IMG/VR virus record: IMGVR_UViG_3300021373_000198
Span: 1-57,201 of that record
DNA length: 57,201 bases
Source of the DNA: a virus
Taxonomy: Duplodnaviria > Caudoviricetes
Reading direction: 5' to 3' (one strand)
The notes beneath the pieces are model-generated. The model saw only the letters and a list, made by a program, of their open reading frames with translations, did not search any database and was not told where the DNA came from. A program made the position numbers and the translations under genes. This document shows, piece by piece, positions 6,164-51,169 of the stretch (the stretch's first letter is position 1; every line of letters begins with the position of its first letter).

Positions 6164-6745
6164 TCAAGCAACGGTGAGCAGAGCAGCATCAGAGGTGACA
6201 TCAGCACCACCAACAACAGAGATGACTACACGATACTGATAAGTATCAAATCCTGTAGCATCAGAGATGTCAAGGGTTGCACCAGTAGCACCACTGTATA
6301 CTCCGCCATCTACGACATTAACAAATCCAAGTCCTTGATCTTCTTGCCACTGGAAGGATAGTGTTCCACCTGCTGGGCGAGATACCGCAGCAACAACAAA
6401 CTGTGCGGGATCACCAGTCAATACAGAAGCAGCTTGTGGTTGGTTATCAATAGTGATAGCGAAGTCTGCTGCGATTGCGTCGTCTGGTTGAGTCTCGTTA
6501 GAGTTGAGATCAGGATTAGCGATGGTTACAAGATGCTCTGCCTTATGACGGACGTTACCTTCGCCATCAGTATAGGTGTAGTATGACCACCAACCAGGGG
6601 CATTGATACCACGATCCTTGTTCTCTTTCAAGGCCGCTTCTTGGTTATCTACAAATACAATAGTTTTTGCTTGAGCAGATGCTGCAATACCGCGACTTGC
6701 TTTCGTCACGTTGTCAGCACTGTCCGTTCTTCCGTATAAGGACAT
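6164..6745 (-). CDS. Virion structural protein with C-terminal Ig-like domain
   Basis: C-terminal ITIDNQPQ...LSFQWQ...GATGATLDIS...YQYRVVIS is an Ig-like pattern; TATAAATA late promoter upstream. Confidence 0.75.
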   Translation of the reverse strand: MSLYGRTDSADNVTKASRGIAASAQAKTIVFVDNQEAALKENKDRGINAPGWWSYYTYTDGEGNVRHKAEHLVTIANPDLNSNETQPDDAIAADFAITIDNQPQAASVLTGDPAQFVVAAVSRPAGGTLSFQWQEDQGLGFVNVVDGGVYSGATGATLDISDATGFDTYQYRVVISVVGGADVTSDAALLTVA

Positions 6746-6777: not shown

Positions 6778-6785
6778 TATTTATA
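6778..6785 (-). promoter_or_regulatory. T4-type late promoter TATAAATA
   Basis: Exact gp55 consensus about 30 nt upstream of the ATG at 6745. Confidence 0.8.
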
Positions 6786-6812
6786 AAAAATGGGAGAGGC
6801 GTACCTCTCCCA
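6785..6812 (-). terminator. Rho-independent terminator
   Basis: TGGGAGAGG-TACG-CCTCTCCCA followed by TTTTTT. Confidence 0.85.
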
Positions 6813-6818
6813 ATATAT

Positions 6819-7037
6819 TCATTCACCTTCTGCAGGTGCTTCCTCTCTTGATTTAATAGCAGCGGAGACAACTTCTAGAAGTTGATCATCCATATCAGTC
6901 TTCGTGAGTTTAACTGCTTTGCCTAGAATAACCAGACAAATGTCGATTAGTTTCTCACCTAGTTCTTCGTTATCGGGAATTTTAGATACTGCATCAGAAA
7001 TAATTTTTGATGCAAGTGGAAGTAGAAATGCAAGCAT
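6819..7037 (-). CDS. Small hypothetical amphipathic protein (72 aa)
   Basis: Start re-assigned to ATG 7037 (MLAFLLPLASKII...TKTDMDDQLL), downstream of AATAAATA at 7064-7071. Confidence 0.7.
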   Translation of the reverse strand: MLAFLLPLASKIISDAVSKIPDNEELGEKLIDICLVILGKAVKLTKTDMDDQLLEVVSAAIKSREEAPAEGE

Positions 7038-7062
7038 GATTTTAAGGGCATAATGTGCCCTA

Positions 7063-7317
7063 TTATTTATTCTTGTTCTTATGCTTCCACGCAGTAGCGT
7101 ATGCAATACCCTCTTTATCTTTAGGATAGTTCTTCTTAATGTGCTTTACCATCCTTTCGTACTTCTTACCAGGAGGAGCGACTTCATCGAGTTCAACTGA
7201 CTCTTTTTGCTGCTTCTTCACGGCACCGAGAACATACTTCTTATGCTTCTTTTTAGCAGAAGCATCTTCCGCTCCGTCTTTGATGTCAGGCATCACTTCG
7301 ACGGAAGCGGCTTTCAC
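7063..7317 (-). CDS. Lys-rich hypothetical late protein; possibly the -1 frameshift extension of 7314..8360
   Basis: GTG overlaps the upstream stop directly after A_AAA_AAG; contains ELDE|VAPPG...IAYATAWK module. Confidence 0.65.
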   Translation of the reverse strand: MKAASVEVMPDIKDGAEDASAKKKHKKYVLGAVKKQQKESVELDEVAPPGKKYERMVKHIKKNYPKDKEGIAYATAWKHKNKNK

Positions 7318-8360
7318 TTTTTTTCTTCTTCAATCTCCCCACGAAGCTCTGCCTGCTCCTTCATCTTCTTTTTGGTGTTGATGATCTTGGAGACTTTCTT
7401 GCGGCGAGCAAGTAGATACTTGTCGGACTTGTCATGATCACCGTCATTGTCAACGTCCTTGTCTTCCTTGCCTACAGGATCAAGTTTCTTCTCACCAAGA
7501 ACTTCTCTGTTCTTTGCGTCGTTAACAACGTGCTCATGAACTTCACTGATCATGATCTCAAGGTCTTCTACAGGTACATTATGGAGAATGGTGGTCTCTC
7601 TCATAATATCATAGTGAGTTACTGTTCCATCCTCAAGCATGGTGTGCTCACCAGGGATGACAGTGTACTCAAGACCTTCTTTCTTGACTTTCTTTGCACA
7701 GTTGTGCTTCTTAACCATCTTGCCAGACTTGGGGTCCTTCTCAAAGTATTCCTTAACGCAGTTATCAACACGCTTGCCACCCTTCATCTTGGTGCCCATT
7801 TGCTTGTATCCTTTCCAACAAGCTTTACCATCGAGACCTTTTTTCTTCTCCATCATGTATGTGACACCTTCGAGTTCAAACTCATAAGTTGTACCAACCA
7901 GTTCTTCATGGACTGTCTCTTCTTTCTTCATAGCAGCCTTATCTTTCTTCTCACACTTGGAGCACCCTTTTCCTCCACAATAAGAGCAGGCTTCCTCACG
8001 GGCAACCACCTTCGTGGTGTCTTTAATTTCTGATCCGTGAGATTGTTTGATACCTGTACCAGCACGAAGATTGGGAGCAGGATCAGGCGCACCAGAATTT
8101 GTTTTGGGATCCTTTGTAGAGAAATCATCTGCTTTCGCCTCCTTTCCTGCGAGGGATGGGATTGATGTAGAAGAATCAGCACCACCTGCAGGACCAGGAG
8201 TTGGAAGTTCTTTCTTTTCTGGTGCTGGGATTGTAGTAGCCTCTTTAATTGTGGACTGTTGGAATCCTTCTCCACCCATCCATCTACCATATGCTTCAAT
8301 CAAAGCATTTGAATAAGCATCATTATGTTGCACACTATTGACTGGTTTTTGTCTTTCCAT
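7314..8360 (-). CDS. Modular charged late protein, probable internal head protein
   Basis: 348 aa of short modules (CWKGYKQMG...DNCVK; HNCAKKV...HYDI; KKLDPVGKEDKDVDNDGDHDKSDKYL) separated by Glu-ending motifs; TATAAATA at 8391-8398. Confidence 0.75.
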   Translation of the reverse strand: MERQKPVNSVQHNDAYSNALIEAYGRWMGGEGFQQSTIKEATTIPAPEKKELPTPGPAGGADSSTSIPSLAGKEAKADDFSTKDPKTNSGAPDPAPNLRAGTGIKQSHGSEIKDTTKVVAREEACSYCGGKGCSKCEKKDKAAMKKEETVHEELVGTTYEFELEGVTYMMEKKKGLDGKACWKGYKQMGTKMKGGKRVDNCVKEYFEKDPKSGKMVKKHNCAKKVKKEGLEYTVIPGEHTMLEDGTVTHYDIMRETTILHNVPVEDLEIMISEVHEHVVNDAKNREVLGEKKLDPVGKEDKDVDNDGDHDKSDKYLLARRKKVSKIINTKKKMKEQAELRGEIEEEKK

Positions 8361-8613
8361 TGTTGAAAATACTACTACTTTTCCTTTCTTTATTTATAGT
8401 GTCCGTCACGTTAACGTGCCGCACATCCTTAATCCACGCACGAAACATGTCTCCTGACTCGGTAATTGCGATGACATAGTTGACACCAGCACGATGAATC
8501 GTGCCTTTCTCACCAGTGATAGACGACATGATAACATCACCCTCCACAAAGACATCACCTTGTCTATGTTGCTGACGCAGTGCTTCTTCGCGTAGTGTCT
8601 TGAAATTTTTCAT
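8335..8613 (-). CDS. Small beta-rich hypothetical protein with capsid-targeting-like N-terminus
   Basis: MKNFKTLREE resembles the T4 internal-protein targeting sequence (MKTYQEFIAE); body GDVI...GEKGTIHRAGVNYVI is SH3/KOW-like by eye. Confidence 0.7.
   Translation of the reverse strand: MKNFKTLREEALRQQHRQGDVFVEGDVIMSSITGEKGTIHRAGVNYVIAITESGDMFRAWIKDVRHVNVTDTINKERKSSSIFNNGKTKTSQ
8391..8398 (-). promoter_or_regulatory. T4-type late promoter TATAAATA
   Basis: Exact consensus 30 nt upstream of ATG 8360. Confidence 0.8.
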
Positions 8614-9173
8614 TTATAGTTGTCTGGCAAATTACTCTTAATCTCTGCCATAAGTGCCCTACAATCCTTCTCCGATAACGCTTTAGGTATACCCTGGCGG
8701 AATGTTTTGAAGTCGTTGGCCGCAGCAGCACGTCTCATTTTAGTACCCGAGATAGCAAAAGTGTCTCCGTCAGCATCTCTGCTGCCCGAAGACTCAATGC
8801 GGATACTTCTAAAGGAGTAATCCTTACCATTATATTTATGGAGGAACTGCATGGCATTAACTCTATCAGAACCCACCAAGAATACTACATCATCATACCC
8901 AGCGAGCATGAGTTCTTGTAAGATTGCAACAGGTTGTTTGGGTCCCGAAAATATTTTACCACGATGTTGCGGAAACATCAAGTTCATGTAGTGCAATTTA
9001 CGATCAGGAGGTAGAGGGTTATTACCTTTAGCATCAACAGACTGTGAGATGTAGATGCGATAGTCATGCTGACCAGCAGCACGTTTCACGCCATTGAAGT
9101 TATCTTCATGACCTGTTGTAGGTGGTTGGAACCTACCAAATGTGAAGTAACATACCTTTCCTTCTAACGCCAT
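8610..9173 (-). CDS. HIGH-superfamily nucleotidyltransferase (cytidylyltransferase-like)
   Basis: FTFGRFQPPTTGH (GxFxPxHxGH variant), NPLP, VGSDR, ISGTKMR (SxTxxR). Confidence 0.85.
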   Translation of the reverse strand: MALEGKVCYFTFGRFQPPTTGHEDNFNGVKRAAGQHDYRIYISQSVDAKGNNPLPPDRKLHYMNLMFPQHRGKIFSGPKQPVAILQELMLAGYDDVVFLVGSDRVNAMQFLHKYNGKDYSFRSIRIESSGSRDADGDTFAISGTKMRRAAAANDFKTFRQGIPKALSEKDCRALMAEIKSNLPDNYK

Positions 9174-10357
9174 TTCTTCTCGATAGTAAAATTATTGTAC
9201 GCGAACTCAAGACGGTTAACAAACTTGATCATACTACCGTCTTTATGCATAACATATCCTTCAGGACTGGTTACCTTATAACCTTTATCTGTTTGAACAA
9301 ATGTCTTGAAAGTTTCAAGGTGATCTAATTTATCTATAACCATTTGTTTGATAGCCTGCAACTCTTTATAGAGTGCAATCATCGTCTTGAAACTGTATAT
9401 GTTATCTAATAGGTAATTTTCACTCTGATATACCAAGTTTCTTTTCTTTGTAAGAGTAGCAACTGTCTTTATCTTGGACAGTTCCTTTGTCATCTTGGCG
9501 TGGTAGAAGTTTACCAGTTCATTTATTGTCTCATCAACGTTGGAGATTGCCCTCGCATTTTTAATTTCAGAATTAAAGAACTGCTTGAGGGATGAGGATA
9601 TGTGGAGTTTTTTCTCTCCTGAATTGCCAAAATTGTCCACCAACTGATCCAGGAAAGGACCAGCAAGAACACACATGCGCTCAATCTTCTGAACATGGTT
9701 GTCAAATGTACGGAGTTCTGCTGTAGAAAATCCCACTCTGTCCATAGGTGTATCGTTTTTGACGACCAATACGTTACTATTGCCTTCTACTTTTGCACCT
9801 GCCATGGCCTGCATATTTTCTAATGCAGTACCAGTGTAGTGAGTGTGAAATACTACCCCAATTTTAGCAGTGTTTGCAGCTTTGCCAATGGGATGATCAA
9901 CTGGTATACCATATGTAATAGTATTAGGACGGAATGTATACAACTCTTCGCCGTCTACAGTTTCTTTCTTCAAATCTGTGGTGAATAGCAGGTCTCCCTG
10001 CACCACACCCTTGATACCTAGTTGACTAAAATATTTTAGAGCAAACTTTAGTTTCTCTGCTAGATCTCCTTGATACCATTCATCAATACTCTCCTCGGTG
10101 AAGCAGATCTTTGGTTCTGTTTTGTTAAAAACTGACTTTGTTCCTACAAAGAACATCTCTGTCAGCGGTTCTACACCACAAACAACTGAAGGCGCACCAT
10201 CCCACTTGGTCTGCATGAATCCGCTGCTCTCTTGCTTGCCCAGCATCTTGCGAAGTTCTTTCAAGAATGAAACTGCTGCCATACACCCCTCGGTGCCGTA
10301 GTTCAGCATCTCATCTTCCAAGTGTTCTAGGTGTTTGAGTTGTTTAATGTTTGCCAT
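9164..10357 (-). CDS. Conserved phage protein with covalent nucleotidyltransferase (RNA-ligase-like) motifs
   Basis: HLEHLED N-terminus; KWDG, VQGDLL, VVFH, PEGYVM and IKFV occur in the order of ligase motifs I, III, IIIa, IV, V. Recalled as DUF6267-like; not verified. Confidence 0.7.
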   Translation of the reverse strand: MANIKQLKHLEHLEDEMLNYGTEGCMAAVSFLKELRKMLGKQESSGFMQTKWDGAPSVVCGVEPLTEMFFVGTKSVFNKTEPKICFTEESIDEWYQGDLAEKLKFALKYFSQLGIKGVVQGDLLFTTDLKKETVDGEELYTFRPNTITYGIPVDHPIGKAANTAKIGVVFHTHYTGTALENMQAMAGAKVEGNSNVLVVKNDTPMDRVGFSTAELRTFDNHVQKIERMCVLAGPFLDQLVDNFGNSGEKKLHISSSLKQFFNSEIKNARAISNVDETINELVNFYHAKMTKELSKIKTVATLTKKRNLVYQSENYLLDNIYSFKTMIALYKELQAIKQMVIDKLDHLETFKTFVQTDKGYKVTSPEGYVMHKDGSMIKFVNRLEFAYNNFTIEKKWR

Positions 10358-11695: not shown

Positions 11696-11780
11696 CGGAA
11701 GGGGTGGGATTCGAACCCACGGAAGCTTTCACTTCGCTGGCTTTCAAGACCAGAGCCATCAACCACTCGACCACCCTTCC
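11696..11780 (-). tRNA. trnS: tRNA-Ser (anticodon TGA), CCA not encoded
   Basis: Acceptor GGAAGGG/CCCTTCC plus discriminator G; D-loop AGTGG; anticodon arm CTGGT-CTTGAAA-GCCAG; long variable arm; T arm GTGGG-TTCGAAT-CCCAC. Confidence 0.95.
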
Positions 11781-19413: not shown

Positions 19414-19556
19414 TATTTAAATACAGCAGTCACACCAAGAACTTTGGCATTAGGATTACGTGCCAGGGCAACCTCCCTGGCTTCTTGATAGTTGCGAGCG
19501 ATCACCTCTTCGGTGAAGACCTGACCTGCAACGTAGAGTTTCACTTCACACTTCAT
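19413..19556 (-). CDS. Small hypothetical protein (47 aa), not in the ORF track
   Basis: MKCEVKLYVAGQVFTEEVIARNYQEAREVALARNPNAKVLGVTAVFK; fills the dam-g62 gap with a TAATG overlap. Confidence 0.8.
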   Translation of the reverse strand: MKCEVKLYVAGQVFTEEVIARNYQEAREVALARNPNAKVLGVTAVFK

Positions 19557-20391
19557 AATTTAAAAGGACGAGTTCCTTGCGAGACGCTTGATCTGTATTA
19601 TAACTCCCCACGGAGCGCATGGTGTAAGTGTGTGCAAATTCTGCTACTGTCCACCCTTCGAACCTTTCTTTAACAAGATTAGACGAGTTGTAAGATATGC
19701 ATTGAGGACCAATAAAACGGTCACAATCAGCAGCAAAGGTGTCATGATCGAAGCACTTGTGCATACTACCTCGCCTTCCGTATAAGTTAGATTTAATATC
19801 ATAGGGCGGGTCGAGGTAAGTGAAGGTGTCTCGATCGTCGGTAAGTAGCTCTTCATAAGATAGGTTAGTAATTTTCCAATTCTTAATCATCAACGAGAAG
19901 TCTGGGAGTCTATCAATGCCTCGCATTGAGAAATTGCTCTCTGAAGCCTGCTTTGAGAAGGATGAGGATTCAGTGAGACCAGAAAAAGAGCACTTGTTAA
20001 TAACGTAAAAAGCAACAGCACGAGATAGATTGGATTGATCACCTTGTGTTCCATTTAGATAGTCCTTTGATTGCTTAAACAATACTTCTGCAGATGTAGG
20101 ATCACAGTGAATATACTTTAGCTGCACAAGTTGATCTCTCATCTCACGACCGTGATCTCTCAACTCACACCAGAAGTTATAGAGAGGTTCATATAAATCG
20201 TTGACCCAGATATCCAATTTAGGATACCTTTTAGACACTTCAATTGCTACGCTACCACCACCCAGAAAAGGCTCACGATACTCCGTTGCCTGGGAAAGGT
20301 CTGGGAGGAATCGGAACAGGTTTGCCAGTGCTCTGCTTTTCCCCCCTGGATAGCGGAGTGGTGTCTTCAGTGATTTTAAAGTTTGGGTCAT
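19546..20391 (-). CDS. dam: DNA adenine methyltransferase (Dam/D12 class)
   Basis: LRYPGGKS, EPFLGGGSV, VNDL, YLDPPY, ISYN. Confidence 0.9.
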   Translation of the reverse strand: MTQTLKSLKTPLRYPGGKSRALANLFRFLPDLSQATEYREPFLGGGSVAIEVSKRYPKLDIWVNDLYEPLYNFWCELRDHGREMRDQLVQLKYIHCDPTSAEVLFKQSKDYLNGTQGDQSNLSRAVAFYVINKCSFSGLTESSSFSKQASESNFSMRGIDRLPDFSLMIKNWKITNLSYEELLTDDRDTFTYLDPPYDIKSNLYGRRGSMHKCFDHDTFAADCDRFIGPQCISYNSSNLVKERFEGWTVAEFAHTYTMRSVGSYNTDQASRKELVLLNYEV

Positions 20392-46450: not shown

Positions 46451-46608
46451 TTGTGGCTCCTATGAAAAGGTTCCCAGTGCTCCCAATTATATTTATGGAC
46501 TGCCCACATACCTAGAATAGGAACGAATACAAGAAGAAACCCCATGACACCAAGGCACCAAGGAGTTTGCATCGTTGCTCTGATGAACAATTGAACATTA
46601 TGTATCAT
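46447..46608 (-). CDS. Small single-pass membrane protein (53 aa)
   Basis: ATG 46608 in an ATGA overlap with the zwf stop; WCLGVMGFLLVFVPILGMWAVHKYNWEHWEPF. Confidence 0.65.
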   Translation of the reverse strand: MIHNVQLFIRATMQTPWCLGVMGFLLVFVPILGMWAVHKYNWEHWEPFHRSHK

Positions 46609-47954
46609 GCTGGATAATCCCAAACAGTTATCATGTGTGTTTTGTACTCTGGACCCCATCCACCACCGTAGATGTAAGGGACAGTACGAATTGGACAACT
46701 ATCACCAGTACACAGAAGGTCATCTACAATCCTCCAACTTTCCATAACTTCATCGACATGGACAAAGTGCGATTGGTCTCCATTTATAGCATCATAGAGG
46801 AGTTTTTCATATCCGTCGATTGCTCTATCTTGGGGGTAGTCGTGAGTGAGTGTAGCCAATTCAAGATTATCATTGAGCCCAGGAGATTTAATATCCATCC
46901 TAATGTCCAGATGAGGATTAGGCTGTAGACGCATGACAATACGATCGTTGATTTCACCTTCATAGAGTTTTAGCGGTGGTGCTTTGAGTTTAATGACTAC
47001 CTCTACACACTGGTATGGTAGTTTTTTTCCTGTCATGACATTAAAAGGAACTCCTTCCCAACGCCAGTTATCGACGAATAAAGTACCAGCAAAATAGGTA
47101 GGAGTACCACTGTTAGGATCAACGCCCTCTTCGTTACGGTAGCCATCGTATTGTCCAAGAATAATGTTCTCTGATAGTCTAGTAGCGGATAAAACTTTTG
47201 TCTTCTCTCTTCTGACTTCTTTTGCTGACATTTTGCTTGGAGGTTCCATAGCAATCAATGCCAGAACTTGCAGAATATGATTCTGTAGCATATCTCTGAC
47301 AGCACCAGCGGTCTCATAATACTGGGCACGACCCTCACAACCAATAGTCTCCGAAGCAAAGATCTGCACTTCTTCTACATACTGGCGATTCCAGAGTGGT
47401 TCAAGAAGAATATTACTAAACCGTGTAGCAAGAATATTATTGACAGTATCTTTGCCGAGATAATGGTCAATGCGATAGACTTGTTTCTCGCGTAGACATC
47501 TAGCAACCACAGTTGATAGACGATCAGCAGATTTATAATCGTGCCCAAAGGGTTTCTCAATAACAACACGCGAGAGTTCTGGGTTGTTGAGGAGTCCTGC
47601 TTCTTTGAGATTGATGATAGCATTCTCATATCGTTCTGGGGGTACGGATAAGAAGTAAGTTGAATCATCTGCATCTGGTAGATTTTTCAATGACTCTGGA
47701 TTATCCAGATCAGTGCTAATCCAATCCAGACGATGGAGAAAGTCTTCAGGATACTCTCCCAAAGATTCCACCCATGTTTGTTTTGCGATCTCACGACGAG
47801 ATGTCCCTACAATCACAAGATTAATTGGAAGTAAATCTTTCTGATGTAGTTTATACAGAGCAGGGATTAGTTTCTTCTTTGCCAGATCTCCAGTAGCACC
47901 GAAGATTACTATCTGGTAAGTAAGTATTTCAGTGTGCGGTTCCGTTTCCATCAT
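46605..47954 (-). CDS. zwf: Glucose-6-phosphate 1-dehydrogenase
   Basis: IFGATGDLAKKKL, IEKPFG, YRIDHYLGK, RDMLQNH, WRWEGVPF. Start at ATG 47954 or 47951; the 5' extension in the ORF track overlaps ndhP. Confidence 0.95.
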   Translation of the reverse strand: MMETEPHTEILTYQIVIFGATGDLAKKKLIPALYKLHQKDLLPINLVIVGTSRREIAKQTWVESLGEYPEDFLHRLDWISTDLDNPESLKNLPDADDSTYFLSVPPERYENAIINLKEAGLLNNPELSRVVIEKPFGHDYKSADRLSTVVARCLREKQVYRIDHYLGKDTVNNILATRFSNILLEPLWNRQYVEEVQIFASETIGCEGRAQYYETAGAVRDMLQNHILQVLALIAMEPPSKMSAKEVRREKTKVLSATRLSENIILGQYDGYRNEEGVDPNSGTPTYFAGTLFVDNWRWEGVPFNVMTGKKLPYQCVEVVIKLKAPPLKLYEGEINDRIVMRLQPNPHLDIRMDIKSPGLNDNLELATLTHDYPQDRAIDGYEKLLYDAINGDQSHFVHVDEVMESWRIVDDLLCTGDSCPIRTVPYIYGGGWGPEYKTHMITVWDYPA

Positions 47955-48057
47955 AGTCGTCCGAGTCGTAGTAGTCATTTTCACCTTTTCGTAGCCCGAA
48001 ATATATCGTGGCCAATACAAAGGGTATTGCCACCCACTTGAGTGCTTCACCTAACAT
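47929..48057 (-). CDS. ndhP: NdhP-like small NDH-1 subunit (42 aa), not in the ORF track
   Basis: MLGEALKWVAIPFVLATIYFGLRKGENDYYDSDDYDGNGTAH: one TM helix plus the FG...YDSDxYxGNGxAH tail characteristic of cyanobacterial NdhP. Confidence 0.8.
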   Translation of the reverse strand: MLGEALKWVAIPFVLATIYFGLRKGENDYYDSDDYDGNGTAH

Positions 48058-50029: not shown

Positions 50030-50314
50030 TCAGCAATTCCACGCACGAAGAGACTTATTGATACGAGAGTCCTTATCGTTAGCAGTTTTTTTGCTGGTTA
50101 ATTTCTTCTTCATGCCCTTCATTCGAGCGCAGAAGGATGCCCTCCTGGGATTTCCAACCTTCTTGCTTGGTGCTTTGAGGTCAGATCCTGGATTTTCCTT
50201 TTCATAAGACTTTCGTCCTTTTTCGTTGAGTCCTCCAGATTTGTTCTGTCCTGATTTTTTTGTCCAGGCTGCTCCTTCGGAGATGTCATGCCTTAACTGT
50301 TTGAACGACTTCAT
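50030..50314 (-). CDS. Basic small protein, probable internal head protein
   Basis: N-terminal MKSFKQLRHDISE (capsid-targeting-like), then AWTKK...GGLNEKGRKSY...RRASFCARMKG...RAWNC. Confidence 0.8.
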   Translation of the reverse strand: MKSFKQLRHDISEGAAWTKKSGQNKSGGLNEKGRKSYEKENPGSDLKAPSKKVGNPRRASFCARMKGMKKKLTSKKTANDKDSRINKSLRAWNC

Positions 50315-50326
50315 ATTTATACCTCA

Positions 50327-51169
50327 TTAGTTATCTACGAGAATGAGATTGAATGTTGAACTGATTTGAGTTCCAGCACCATTGAATGCCTGAACTTCAA
50401 TGTCTACTTTCTCGTTAAACTTTAGTGGAATAGAATAGTTCTTTACATGGAAACCACCCGATACTGACATAGTATCTGATGTTGTCATCACAAATCCATT
50501 GACTGGCAATCTGGTTCTCAAGAAAGCAGATGTTGATGTATTGTAATCTCCTGCTCCGATAGTCCACTGTGTTAGATATGCTGTCTTACCAGCAGGCACT
50601 GTATACAAAGATAGCATAGTTTGACCAAAACCAATATAGTTAGCTCCAGTTCCATCACCACCAATTTGTGCTACGACTGTGCCTGCTCCTGATGCTGCGG
50701 TGCTGATAACAAGATCACCTCTATTGTATCCATCAGAACCAGCATCAGTAATAAATGCTCGGTAAACTCTCAAGAATGTTTGTATAGAAGCAGCACCATT
50801 AACTGTAACTTCTTCCTGAACCAAATTGTAATCAGTATCCAGTCCTTGAACTGTTACTTTTCTAGCTCCAGTTCCAGTCAATCCATCAGCAGCATTAGCA
50901 GAATAAACATAAACTGCTGTAGCAGATGTTAGATATTCGTAGATACCACCACGATCCCAAATAGTTTCAATACTTGTAGCGACACTTGGATTTCTACCGA
51001 ACTTTTCAATAGAGGAATATCCGTCTAACAGTCCAGCAGCAATGGGGATGTTAGCAGCGGATCCATAACTATTCAGTGGGTTGCCGTCTTGGTCGGCAAG
51101 CATCACTACCTCAAAGTTTGTTGTGTCCTGTGCTCTATATGCTTGAGCGTCTTTGTTCCACTGTGCCAT
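50327..51169 (-). CDS. Hypothetical virion structural protein
   Basis: 280 aa, Gly/Thr/beta-rich, LYTVPAGKTAYL motif, late block. Confidence 0.7.
   Translation of the reverse strand: MAQWNKDAQAYRAQDTTNFEVVMLADQDGNPLNSYGSAANIPIAAGLLDGYSSIEKFGRNPSVATSIETIWDRGGIYEYLTSATAVYVYSANAADGLTGTGARKVTVQGLDTDYNLVQEEVTVNGAASIQTFLRVYRAFITDAGSDGYNRGDLVISTAASGAGTVVAQIGGDGTGANYIGFGQTMLSLYTVPAGKTAYLTQWTIGAGDYNTSTSAFLRTRLPVNGFVMTTSDTMSVSGGFHVKNYSIPLKFNEKVDIEVQAFNGAGTQISSTFNLILVDN

Follow-up and report, generated by a model that had tools for sequence, protein, structure and literature searches.

In Escherichia coli dnaX, the slippery heptamer A_AAA_AAG, a Shine-Dalgarno (SD)-like element about 10 nucleotides (nt) upstream and a 3' stem-loop together allow two products to be made from one reading frame, in a bacterium where AAG is decoded by the UUU-anticodon tRNA-Lys alone, which pairs weakly with it. 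The orfA-orfB pairs of IS3/IS911 elements carry the same heptamer near the end of the upstream open reading frame (ORF), where it fuses the 0- and -1-frame ORFs with the help of variable SD-like elements and 3' structures. Among phages, in T7 gene 10A/10B and the G/GT tail-chaperone genes of lambda-like phages, ribosomes shift by -1 shortly before a late gene ends, so that a small amount of a C-terminally extended protein accompanies the predominant short one. We know of no such frameshift site in T4-like phages. Here we describe a candidate in a stretch of 57,201 nt (IMG/VR virus record IMGVR_UViG_3300021373_000198, positions 1 to 57,201; hereafter the window), which comes from a T4-like cyanomyovirus near S-CAM3. 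At this locus an ORF of 348 amino acids (aa), ORF1, ends on AAAAAAG and a stop codon, and an 84-codon ORF, ORF2, opens in the -1 frame. On sequence comparison, we judge it probable, at roughly three chances in four, that programmed -1 ribosomal frameshifting yields both the 348-aa form and an extended form of about 432 aa, and we hold with equal confidence that the site is a conserved one of the classical A_AAA_AAG type that is absent from the annotation.

Both ORFs lie on the minus strand. ORF1 (7314..8360) sets the zero frame, and its 3' end reads GGG GAG ATT GAA GAA GAA AAA AAG TGA; the heptamer A_AAA_AAG (7317..7323) stands in the X_XXY_YYZ phase of ORF1 and is followed directly by the TGA stop (7314..7316). 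An SD-like GGGGAG (7335..7340) precedes the heptamer by 11 nt (7334-7324), and the A-run at the heptamer comprises seven A residues (7324-7318). ORF2 (7063..7317), whose -1 frame is open over all 84 codons, has as its first codon a GTG at G7317 that overlaps the ORF1 stop (GTGA) and lies 17 nt past GGGGAG; a further in-frame ATG is found 24 nt downstream (7293-7291). The sequence-only reading that first pointed to this locus had placed the two ORFs, the heptamer and its phase, the stop, the SD-like word with its spacing and the distant GTG correctly, and the junction peptide that it predicted, ...EEEKK/VKAASVEVMP, is right. A three-tier stem-loop (7269..7310) begins 6 nt past the heptamer and holds the in-frame ATG in its apical helix, and in the window fold a second hairpin, of 8 bp, follows further downstream (7243..7265). 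Counting both strands, the window contains 15 copies of AAAAAAG; three of these are in phase within stop-to-stop frames of at least 80 codons, and one, that at the junction, lies within two codons of a stop. A single AAAAAAG-stop site is by itself not beyond chance, and the case therefore rests on the conservation of the heptamer.

We surveyed junctions in 169 sources, namely, the window, eight isolate genomes and 160 IMG/VR loci, the last obtained from two scans with the C-terminal half of ORF1 (best 80 of 159 relatives) and with ORF2 (best 80 of 140) as queries; contigs present in both scans collapse in the counts of unique junctions. The two ORFs are split in 160 sources, which provide 105 unique junctions. 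Omitted from these counts are six loci without a VEVMP-type match to the motif pattern (L018, L038, L041, L046, L068, and L071), of which L018 nonetheless carries the heptamer and VEVMP and several others run off their contigs, and three fused or rearranged loci (L026, L028, and L058). ORF2 is in the -1 frame relative to ORF1 in all 160 split sources. Wherever the overlap lacks an ATG, the heptamer is present and in phase (62/62 unique junctions), both in the 30 junctions with GTG or TTG at the overlap and in the 32 that have no start codon there (GTA or GCA, with TAA or TAG as the stop; S-PM2, Syn1, S-RIM32, and S-H9-2 have GTA). An ATG at the overlap (ATGA) characterizes the other 43 of the 105 unique junctions, and the heptamer occurs in 1 of these 43 and is absent in 42. 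It is thus found in 63 of 105 unique junctions overall, and the -1 frame is open in every one of the 63. Since the sequences are related and the genes mosaic, these counts and the p-values given below describe a pattern rather than independent probabilities.

Within the heptamer class, the stop is TGA in 31 junctions, TAA in 22 and TAG in 10; it adjoins the heptamer in 57 and lies one codon further in 6. AAA AAG is preceded by GAA in 52 junctions, TCA in 5, GGA in 3 and GCA in 3; this codon always ends in A whatever the amino acid, and the three wobble positions of the heptamer are invariant across these four preceding codons and three stop codons. The ATG class, for its part, spells the last three codons of ORF1 in eight ways (e.g., AAG AAA AAA, AAA AAG AAA, and GGT AAG AAA). 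The sequence-only reading had proposed to ask whether AAAAAAG-stop and the open -1 frame persist even where no start codon exists, and the survey answers this in the affirmative, in 62 of 62 non-ATG junctions, 32 of them without a start. The pattern that it had named as refuting the idea, an orthologue with an independent start and no heptamer, also exists, in 42 unique junctions, but is confined to the separate ATGA-overlap class. ORF2 of that class has an additional N-terminal leader, and the two arrangements therefore look like alternatives. As a separate observation, one clade (L146, L142, L153, and relatives) has a TAG stop after the heptamer and a -1-frame ORF that runs 214-247 codons past a VEIMP motif to a DUF6321 domain at its end; a frameshift there would lengthen an ORF1 frame of 316-399 codons by over half.

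These observations bear on the possibility that no recoding takes place and that ORF2 is an ordinary gene, translated through coupling or re-initiation that starts either from the GTG of the stop overlap or from the ATG 24 nt further on, with the heptamer being the Lys-Lys end of ORF1. Such an account draws on the two starts that the window offers, the GTG at the overlap and the in-frame ATG at 7293-7291, on the viability of separate ORF2 expression implied by the 42 unique junctions with a plain ATGA and no heptamer, and on the isolate records, in all eight of which the pair is given as two separate coding sequences (CDSs) with no join. It is at odds with the state of the overlap codon, which is GTA or GCA in 32 of the 62 non-ATG junctions, so that an overlapping start is not conserved. 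In 29 of these 32, the -1 frame has no ATG, GTG or TTG until it reaches the M of VEVMP or the codon preceding it, 3-20 codons past the heptamer, and the intervening codons are conserved in their amino acids and vary at their third positions, which coupling alone cannot explain. We also built a quick tree of the ORF1 C-terminal domain (108 unique rows, junction residues excluded). Along it, the 67 heptamer rows flip between start and no start at the overlap at least 13 times without ever losing the heptamer, which indicates that the GTG of the window is a by-product of its TGA stop and not a conserved feature. The class label itself, heptamer or ATG, changes at least six times, at least three of these changes being forced by well-supported branches (shuffled mean, 33). 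Given also the fixed wobble positions of the heptamer and a conserved helix that hides the downstream ATG in two structural types (see below), we consider expression of ORF2 without recoding unlikely.

The linker that separates the heptamer from the first possible start codon varies in the manner of -1-frame coding sequence. The S-RIM32 linker (GTA AAG AAG CCA GTA GTC GAA GTT ATG) and that of S-H9-2 (GTA AAG AAG CCA GTG GTT GAG GTG ATG) differ at third positions only and both encode VKKPVVEVM, and in S-PM2 the linker before the first start codon encodes ..KKPVIEVMPEIDDG... The minimum numbers of linker substitutions at the three -1-frame codon positions are 34, 29 and 64 (chi-square p 2e-4), and the no-start subset gives 17, 14 and 33 (p 0.0075). 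Linker length varies (12, 21, 24, 27, 30, 60 and 63 nt), always in a way that leaves the frame intact. The long ones (VTEACECDDKPK.. and VNEACGCDDKPAKK..) are homologous to residues 9-20 of the ATG-class ORF2 (..REECGCDKKERK..).

The predicted fusion has natural counterparts in proteins where the same modules are joined in a single frame. In two loci (L026 and L028), one frame runs from a homologue of the 92-aa ORF that precedes ORF1 in the window through the ORF1 core (..KACWKGYK.., ..KKHNCA.., and ..DVDNDGD..RRATVS..) and, about 22 residues past RRATVS.., reaches FVEVNPEIEDN.. and a YATA..K tail; this arrangement is collinear with the predicted frameshift product, with Asn replacing the Met of VEVMP. 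Three other loci (L058, P0055, and P0008) have a VEVMP-type motif in frame with ORF1-type modules, and in a further one (P0035) the ORF2 C-terminal module (APPGAKYERMVKH..., APPGxKYERM) lies in frame inside an ORF1-like chain. Such in-frame homologues, together with the position of the break within a homopolymer, could also be taken to mean that a single gene has been broken by a sequencing error or by a recent pseudogenizing frameshift. We regard this as highly improbable, since 63 unique junctions, found in isolates as well as in many metagenomes, share the identical break in the identical phase, with both ORFs open and conserved. Moreover, DNA contigs from an independent run cross the junction without an indel, as do contigs from two RNA libraries (X16, 6841-7654; X15, 7208-7589), which argues against a homopolymer sequencing error.

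The RNA-library contigs also touch on transcriptional slippage, in which RNA polymerase would add one A within the A-run, so that a share of the mRNAs would encode the same fusion in one frame. The addition of one A to the 7-A run of the window yields ...EEEKK-VKAAS, which is identical to the frameshift product. The contigs span the site without an indel, although this evidence is weak, as contigs drop minor variants and the molecules may be of DNA origin. Known cases of transcriptional slippage, from bacteria and mobile elements, involve longer runs, with a threshold of about 8-9 A. No lineage shows a lengthened A-run; beside the 7 A of the window, 11 of the 63 junctions, those with TCA, GGA or GCA as the preceding codon, have only 6 A, and it is the phased heptamer rather than the length of the run that has been conserved. 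A downstream structure at ribosomal spacing would likewise be needless for polymerase slippage, and in 44 of the 63 junctions the first paired base falls 5-7 nt past the heptamer. On these grounds, slippage by the polymerase appears still less likely than expression of ORF2 by coupling.

Examination of the flanks of the heptamer revealed features of the kind that stimulate ribosomal frameshifting elsewhere. In 53 of the 63 heptamer-class junctions, the 20 nt upstream include an SD-like word, most often at a spacing of 11 nt (36 junctions) and otherwise at 7 nt (12), 13 nt (3) or 9 nt (2); the S-PM2-like subgroup has GGAGG 7 nt upstream. On the 3' side, the 77 nt past the heptamer in the window (7316-7240) fold with -32.6 kcal/mol (z -6.18), and 0 of 200 shuffles are as stable. 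The stem-loop was examined in an alignment of 16 relatives with the same linker length, drawn from the 29 unique junctions with a 24-nt linker. In this alignment, 85% of 240 cells are paired, versus 34-58% when the partners are slid, and both sides of a pair have changed in 16 cells (shuffle mean, 7.6; 0/500 shuffles as high). Compensatory exchanges include C-G/G-C/G-U at columns 45-84 and U-A/A-U/G-C at columns 48-81. Because the structure under test had been taken from the window, which favors it, RNAalifold was used as a check, and it recovered the same helices. The sequence-only reading had favored a shorter, 6-bp hairpin 7 nt past the heptamer (CGCTTC, 7309-7304; loop CGTC; GAAGTG, 7299-7294). 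This hairpin does exist, but both energy and comparison prefer the longer fold at 7310-7269, and we rejected the shorter one: 68.8% of its 96 cells pair, no compensatory change is seen, and its covariation score is no better than that of shuffles (397/500 at least as high).

In other subgroups, this place is occupied by different hairpins, of the form AGGCUUG/CAAGCCU or AGGCA../..UGCCU; the latter takes in the ATG, and its outer pair exchanges A-U for G-C. The downstream ATG is thereby buried within a conserved helix in two structural types. A first structure survey of 42 hand-listed loci from the first scan, of which 41 unique junctions were folded, was redone on all 105. The 60 nt downstream have a median z of -2.13 in the heptamer class, with 33 of 63 below -2, and a median of -1.01 in the ATG class, with 6 of 42 below -2.

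On the basis of this anatomy, a mechanism can be envisaged in which ORF1 and ORF2 share a transcript, probably made from a late promoter. Most ribosomes would decode GA-A AAA AAG, meet the TGA and release the 348-aa ORF1 protein, whereas a fraction would slip back by one base on A_AAA_AAG, either in a tandem slip in which two Lys-tRNAs re-pair on AAA AAA or by a P-site slip with the stop codon in the A site. The slipped ribosomes would then read GTG AAA GCC... and go on through all 84 codons of ORF2 to give a product of about 432 aa in which ORF1 and ORF2 meet at ...EEEKK-VKAASVEVMP.... The two likely stimulators would be GGGGAG 11 nt on the 5' side and the stem-loop 6 nt on the 3' side, the latter also burying the internal ATG of ORF2. 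The slippage itself, its efficiency and the role of each stimulator are what we infer here. Some free ORF2 may in addition arise in the window from the GTG that overlaps the stop.

Several observations pull against frameshifting and are best considered together. In the window, the GTG overlaps the stop, so that coupled initiation alone could express ORF2 there, and the ATG class shows that ORF2 can work as a separate protein. Three of the 32 no-start junctions, those of the S-PM2 type, have a GTG only four codons past the heptamer. Neither stimulator is universal: the SD-like word is absent in 10 of the 63 heptamer-class junctions, and the group of S-PM2, Syn1, S-H9-2 and S-RIM32 is without a convincing 3' structure (z about 0 to -1). 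Even where present, the SD-like words may be incidental, because they double as the Lys-Glu codons of a tail rich in these two residues. The counts are not independent, given the relatedness of the sequences, and gene mosaicism may blur the ORF1 tree. With regard to the decoding of AAG, which in E. coli falls to tRNA-Lys(UUU) alone, we found no tRNA-Lys gene in the window or among the 10 tRNAs annotated in 197 kb of S-CAM3. The sole tRNA of the window is a tRNA-Ser(UGA) at 11696-11780 on the minus strand, which is syntenic in S-CAM3, where nine further tRNAs are annotated.

None of the eight isolate records annotates a joined CDS. Five of them start the second CDS downstream of the conserved linker, at an internal ATG in S-H9-2, S-RIM32 and Sf-CH11 (in Sf-CH11 despite a GTG at the overlap) and at an internal GTG in S-PM2 and Syn1. 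Literature searches for ribosomal frameshifting or slippage in cyanophages, from which most subscription journals were outside reach, returned unrelated papers or none, and searches for DUF6321 and for the S-PM2p143-146 locus tags had no match; the word "frameshift" is absent from the main text of PMC3037559 and PMC2984593.

The nature of the two proteins is less clear-cut than their junction. Past a conserved N-terminal leader, which ends in L-I-E at residue 22 (54 of 79 unique ORF1 N termini have L-x-E with its E at this residue), ORF1 comprises a variable middle, a domain rich in beta structure (about residues 215-280), an acidic loop of the DxDxDG type and, at its C terminus, a helix. ORF2 has the VEVMP motif at codons 6-10 and a C-terminal APPGKKYERMVKH..YATAWKHKNK module common to many mosaic cyanophage proteins. 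A Pfam search retrieved no family for either, and PHROGs placed ORF1 in phrog_4359 and the N-terminal part of phrog_11250 against ORF2, the families retrieved being of unknown function or labeled "cytidyltransferase" via fused relatives only. Longer relatives match DUF6321, DUF3008 and, weakly, dockerin/EF-hand loops in Pfam. The ESM Atlas returned only unnamed viral clusters for the two ORFs. An AlphaFold2 model of ORF1, made with 38 of 93 unique ORF1 sequences, has a mean predicted local distance difference test score of 59.9 and is confident at about residues 215-280 only; BFVD matches were confined to cyanophage homologues, and in a VIA-align comparison with 48,161 PDB representatives the highest Z was 4.7, none of the matches, mostly of single helices, reaching 5. 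The designation of the product as a head protein in the sequence-only reading is thus not borne out, with neither ORF having a known family or fold in the Pfam, PHROGs, ESM Atlas and structure searches. Both consist of a series of short modules, which recur in shuffled order across cyanophage proteins and are often fused to the adjacent cytidylyltransferase.

Two features of the variable middle of ORF1 may be recorded here. Its low-confidence part contains the motif CSYCGGKGCSKC (residues ~124-135; 7930-7990, minus strand), which fits the DnaJ zinc-finger pattern CxxCxGxG. In run X1, a DNA contig joins position 7840 to 8297 and skips 456 nt, in frame (152 codons); this form consists of the 21-residue leader and the C-terminal core of ORF1 without the variable middle and resembles the short ORF1s of relatives (187-204 aa), and the contig may derive from a related phage in the sample. 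As for a presence in virions, PMC10665884 states that cytidylyltransferases are often detected in cyanophage virions, and the published S-CREM2 virion proteome lists a cytidylyltransferase (ORF154) and a hypothetical protein (ORF156). We dropped a virion link by way of S-CREM2, as its ORF155 and ORF156 are not homologues of ORF1 (BLASTP E 0.54 and 10).

A different line of evidence comes from the N termini encoded at the locus. The 92-aa ORF starts with MKNFKTLREE, and ATG-class ORF2s of relatives start with MKTFKEFQEE, MKTFKQLREE or MKSFKQFREE; the pattern MK-x-F/Y-..-F/L-..-E opens 24 of 26 unique ATG-class ORF2s. In the T4 record, IPIII and IPII start with MKTYQEFIAE and IPI with MKTFKEFTST; leaders of the T4 type have an aromatic or hydrophobic residue at positions 4 and 7 and end in an (L/I)-x-E protease site. 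According to PMC9026906, T4 loads its internal proteins into the prohead by such propeptides, which are 10-19 residues long, with residues 4 and 7 serving in targeting and residues 8 and 10 in processing. In S-CAM3, the pattern is found in 1 of 1984 ATG-initiated frames of at least 40 aa, and that one lies at the same locus. By analogy, the leaders hint at capsid-packaged proteins: the 92-aa ORF and the ATG-class ORF2 share the MK..F/Y.. type of leader with IPI, IPII and IPIII. There is, however, no homology to these T4 proteins past the leader, ORF1 is far larger, and cleavage and packaging are only putative in the cyanophages. The heptamer-class ORF2 has no leader. Wherever the ATG and the leader are missing from ORF2, the heptamer is present, and this leads to a speculative reading in which the frameshift replaces the targeting peptide. 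The frameshift might then be a delivery device, whereby a set share of ORF1 molecules, keeping their own leader, would bring ORF2 along into the prohead as a passenger at their C terminus; this we put forward tentatively, as something rather doubtful. It is with the same reserve that one could see frameshift and targeting peptide as interchangeable ways of loading and dosing an injected protein, between which lineages would have switched several times.

The timing of expression can be approached through a T4-type late-promoter-like motif, TATAAATA, at 8391..8398 on the minus strand, 30 nt before the ORF1 ATG. Of 87 unique upstream regions, 85 have NATAAATA at a distance of 25-33 nt from the ORF1 ATG, and PMC2984593 reports the motif as the late-promoter motif of S-PM2 and T4. 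The presence of a conserved late-promoter-type motif before ORF1 makes "late" a plausible description of the two ORFs, as the sequence-only reading had called them, with this motif, 30 nt ahead of ORF1, as the sole support. TATAAATA occurs three times in the window, each time on the minus strand, which is the coding strand. One of the other two copies, at 6778-6785, is 32 nt before an ORF annotated as "head protein" (6164..6745; phrog_613, with an Ig-like/Hoc-like C-terminal part), and the other, at 50314-50321, is downstream of the ORF at 50327..51169.

The window is the sole contig of its assembly. A BLASTN search with positions 6800-8700 retrieved 346 phage records, nearly all from Synechococcus or Prochlorococcus phages, the top match being S-CAM3 (87.3% identity, 82% query cover). 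Directly 5' of ORF1 on the same strand is the 92-aa ORF (8335..8613), whose last 26 nt overlap ORF1 (8335-8360). This overlap was considered as a second recoding site and dropped, because S-RIM32 shows a 28-nt gap there. Several GenBank records and phrog_4808 name the 92-aa ORF "ribonucleotide reductase alpha subunit/NrdB"; Pfam gives no match and no such domain, and the label looks like a propagated misannotation. In L026, the homologue of this ORF is fused in frame to the ORF1-like protein. Further along the minus strand (8610-10357), DUF6267 (397 aa) and a cytidylyltransferase (187 aa) are separate overlapping ORFs in the window; in S-PM2 they apparently form a single CDS of 1761 nt (p143), and a separate cytidylyltransferase CDS is not annotated, and phrog_455 covers both. 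The cluster is a chain of modules that is split or fused differently from phage to phage. Elsewhere on the minus strand, the window encodes a D12-class N6-adenine DNA methyltransferase amid replication genes (19546-20391; Pfam E 1e-27) and, as an auxiliary metabolic gene, zwf for glucose-6-phosphate dehydrogenase (46605-48050). The best match of zwf in the genome collection, at 80% identity, is on a 24-kb contig binned as a "Rhodopirellula" metagenome-assembled genome, which is probably a mis-binned cyanophage contig; no cyanobacterial zwf was found among the best 80 loci of the search of genome contigs.

T4-like cyanophages (Kyanoviridae) rank with the most abundant marine viruses, and their laboratory models include S-PM2, Syn1, S-CAM1 and S-CAM3. 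If our reading is correct, they share a conserved recoding event that is annotated in none of the records examined; gene calls for the ORF1/ORF2 pair would need revision, and a product of about 430 aa is to be expected in proteomes. Sister lineages with either the heptamer or the ATGA overlap would offer a natural experiment on the origin and replacement of frameshift sites, and should the internal-protein reading hold as well, the site would be a route to study what cyanophages inject with their DNA. Compared with described systems, the locus recalls T7 10A/10B and G/GT in its predicted C-terminal extension, although its slippery sequence differs and its proteins have no assigned function. 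It has the heptamer of IS3/IS911-family elements but is no mobile element, having no transposase domain in Pfam or PHROGs searches and sitting in a late-gene cluster. It differs from dnaX in that the gene, the host (cyanobacteria) and the protein are unrelated, in that the 3' structure and the SD-like element are not universal among the phage orthologues, and in the outcome of the shift: dnaX ribosomes that shift meet a stop within a very short distance and give the shorter product, whereas in the phage it is the zero frame that stops and the shift would add 84 residues. What links it to dnaX (tau/gamma) is the anatomy, with A_AAA_AAG at both sites and, in the phage, an SD-like element 11 nt upstream and a stem-loop 6 nt downstream.

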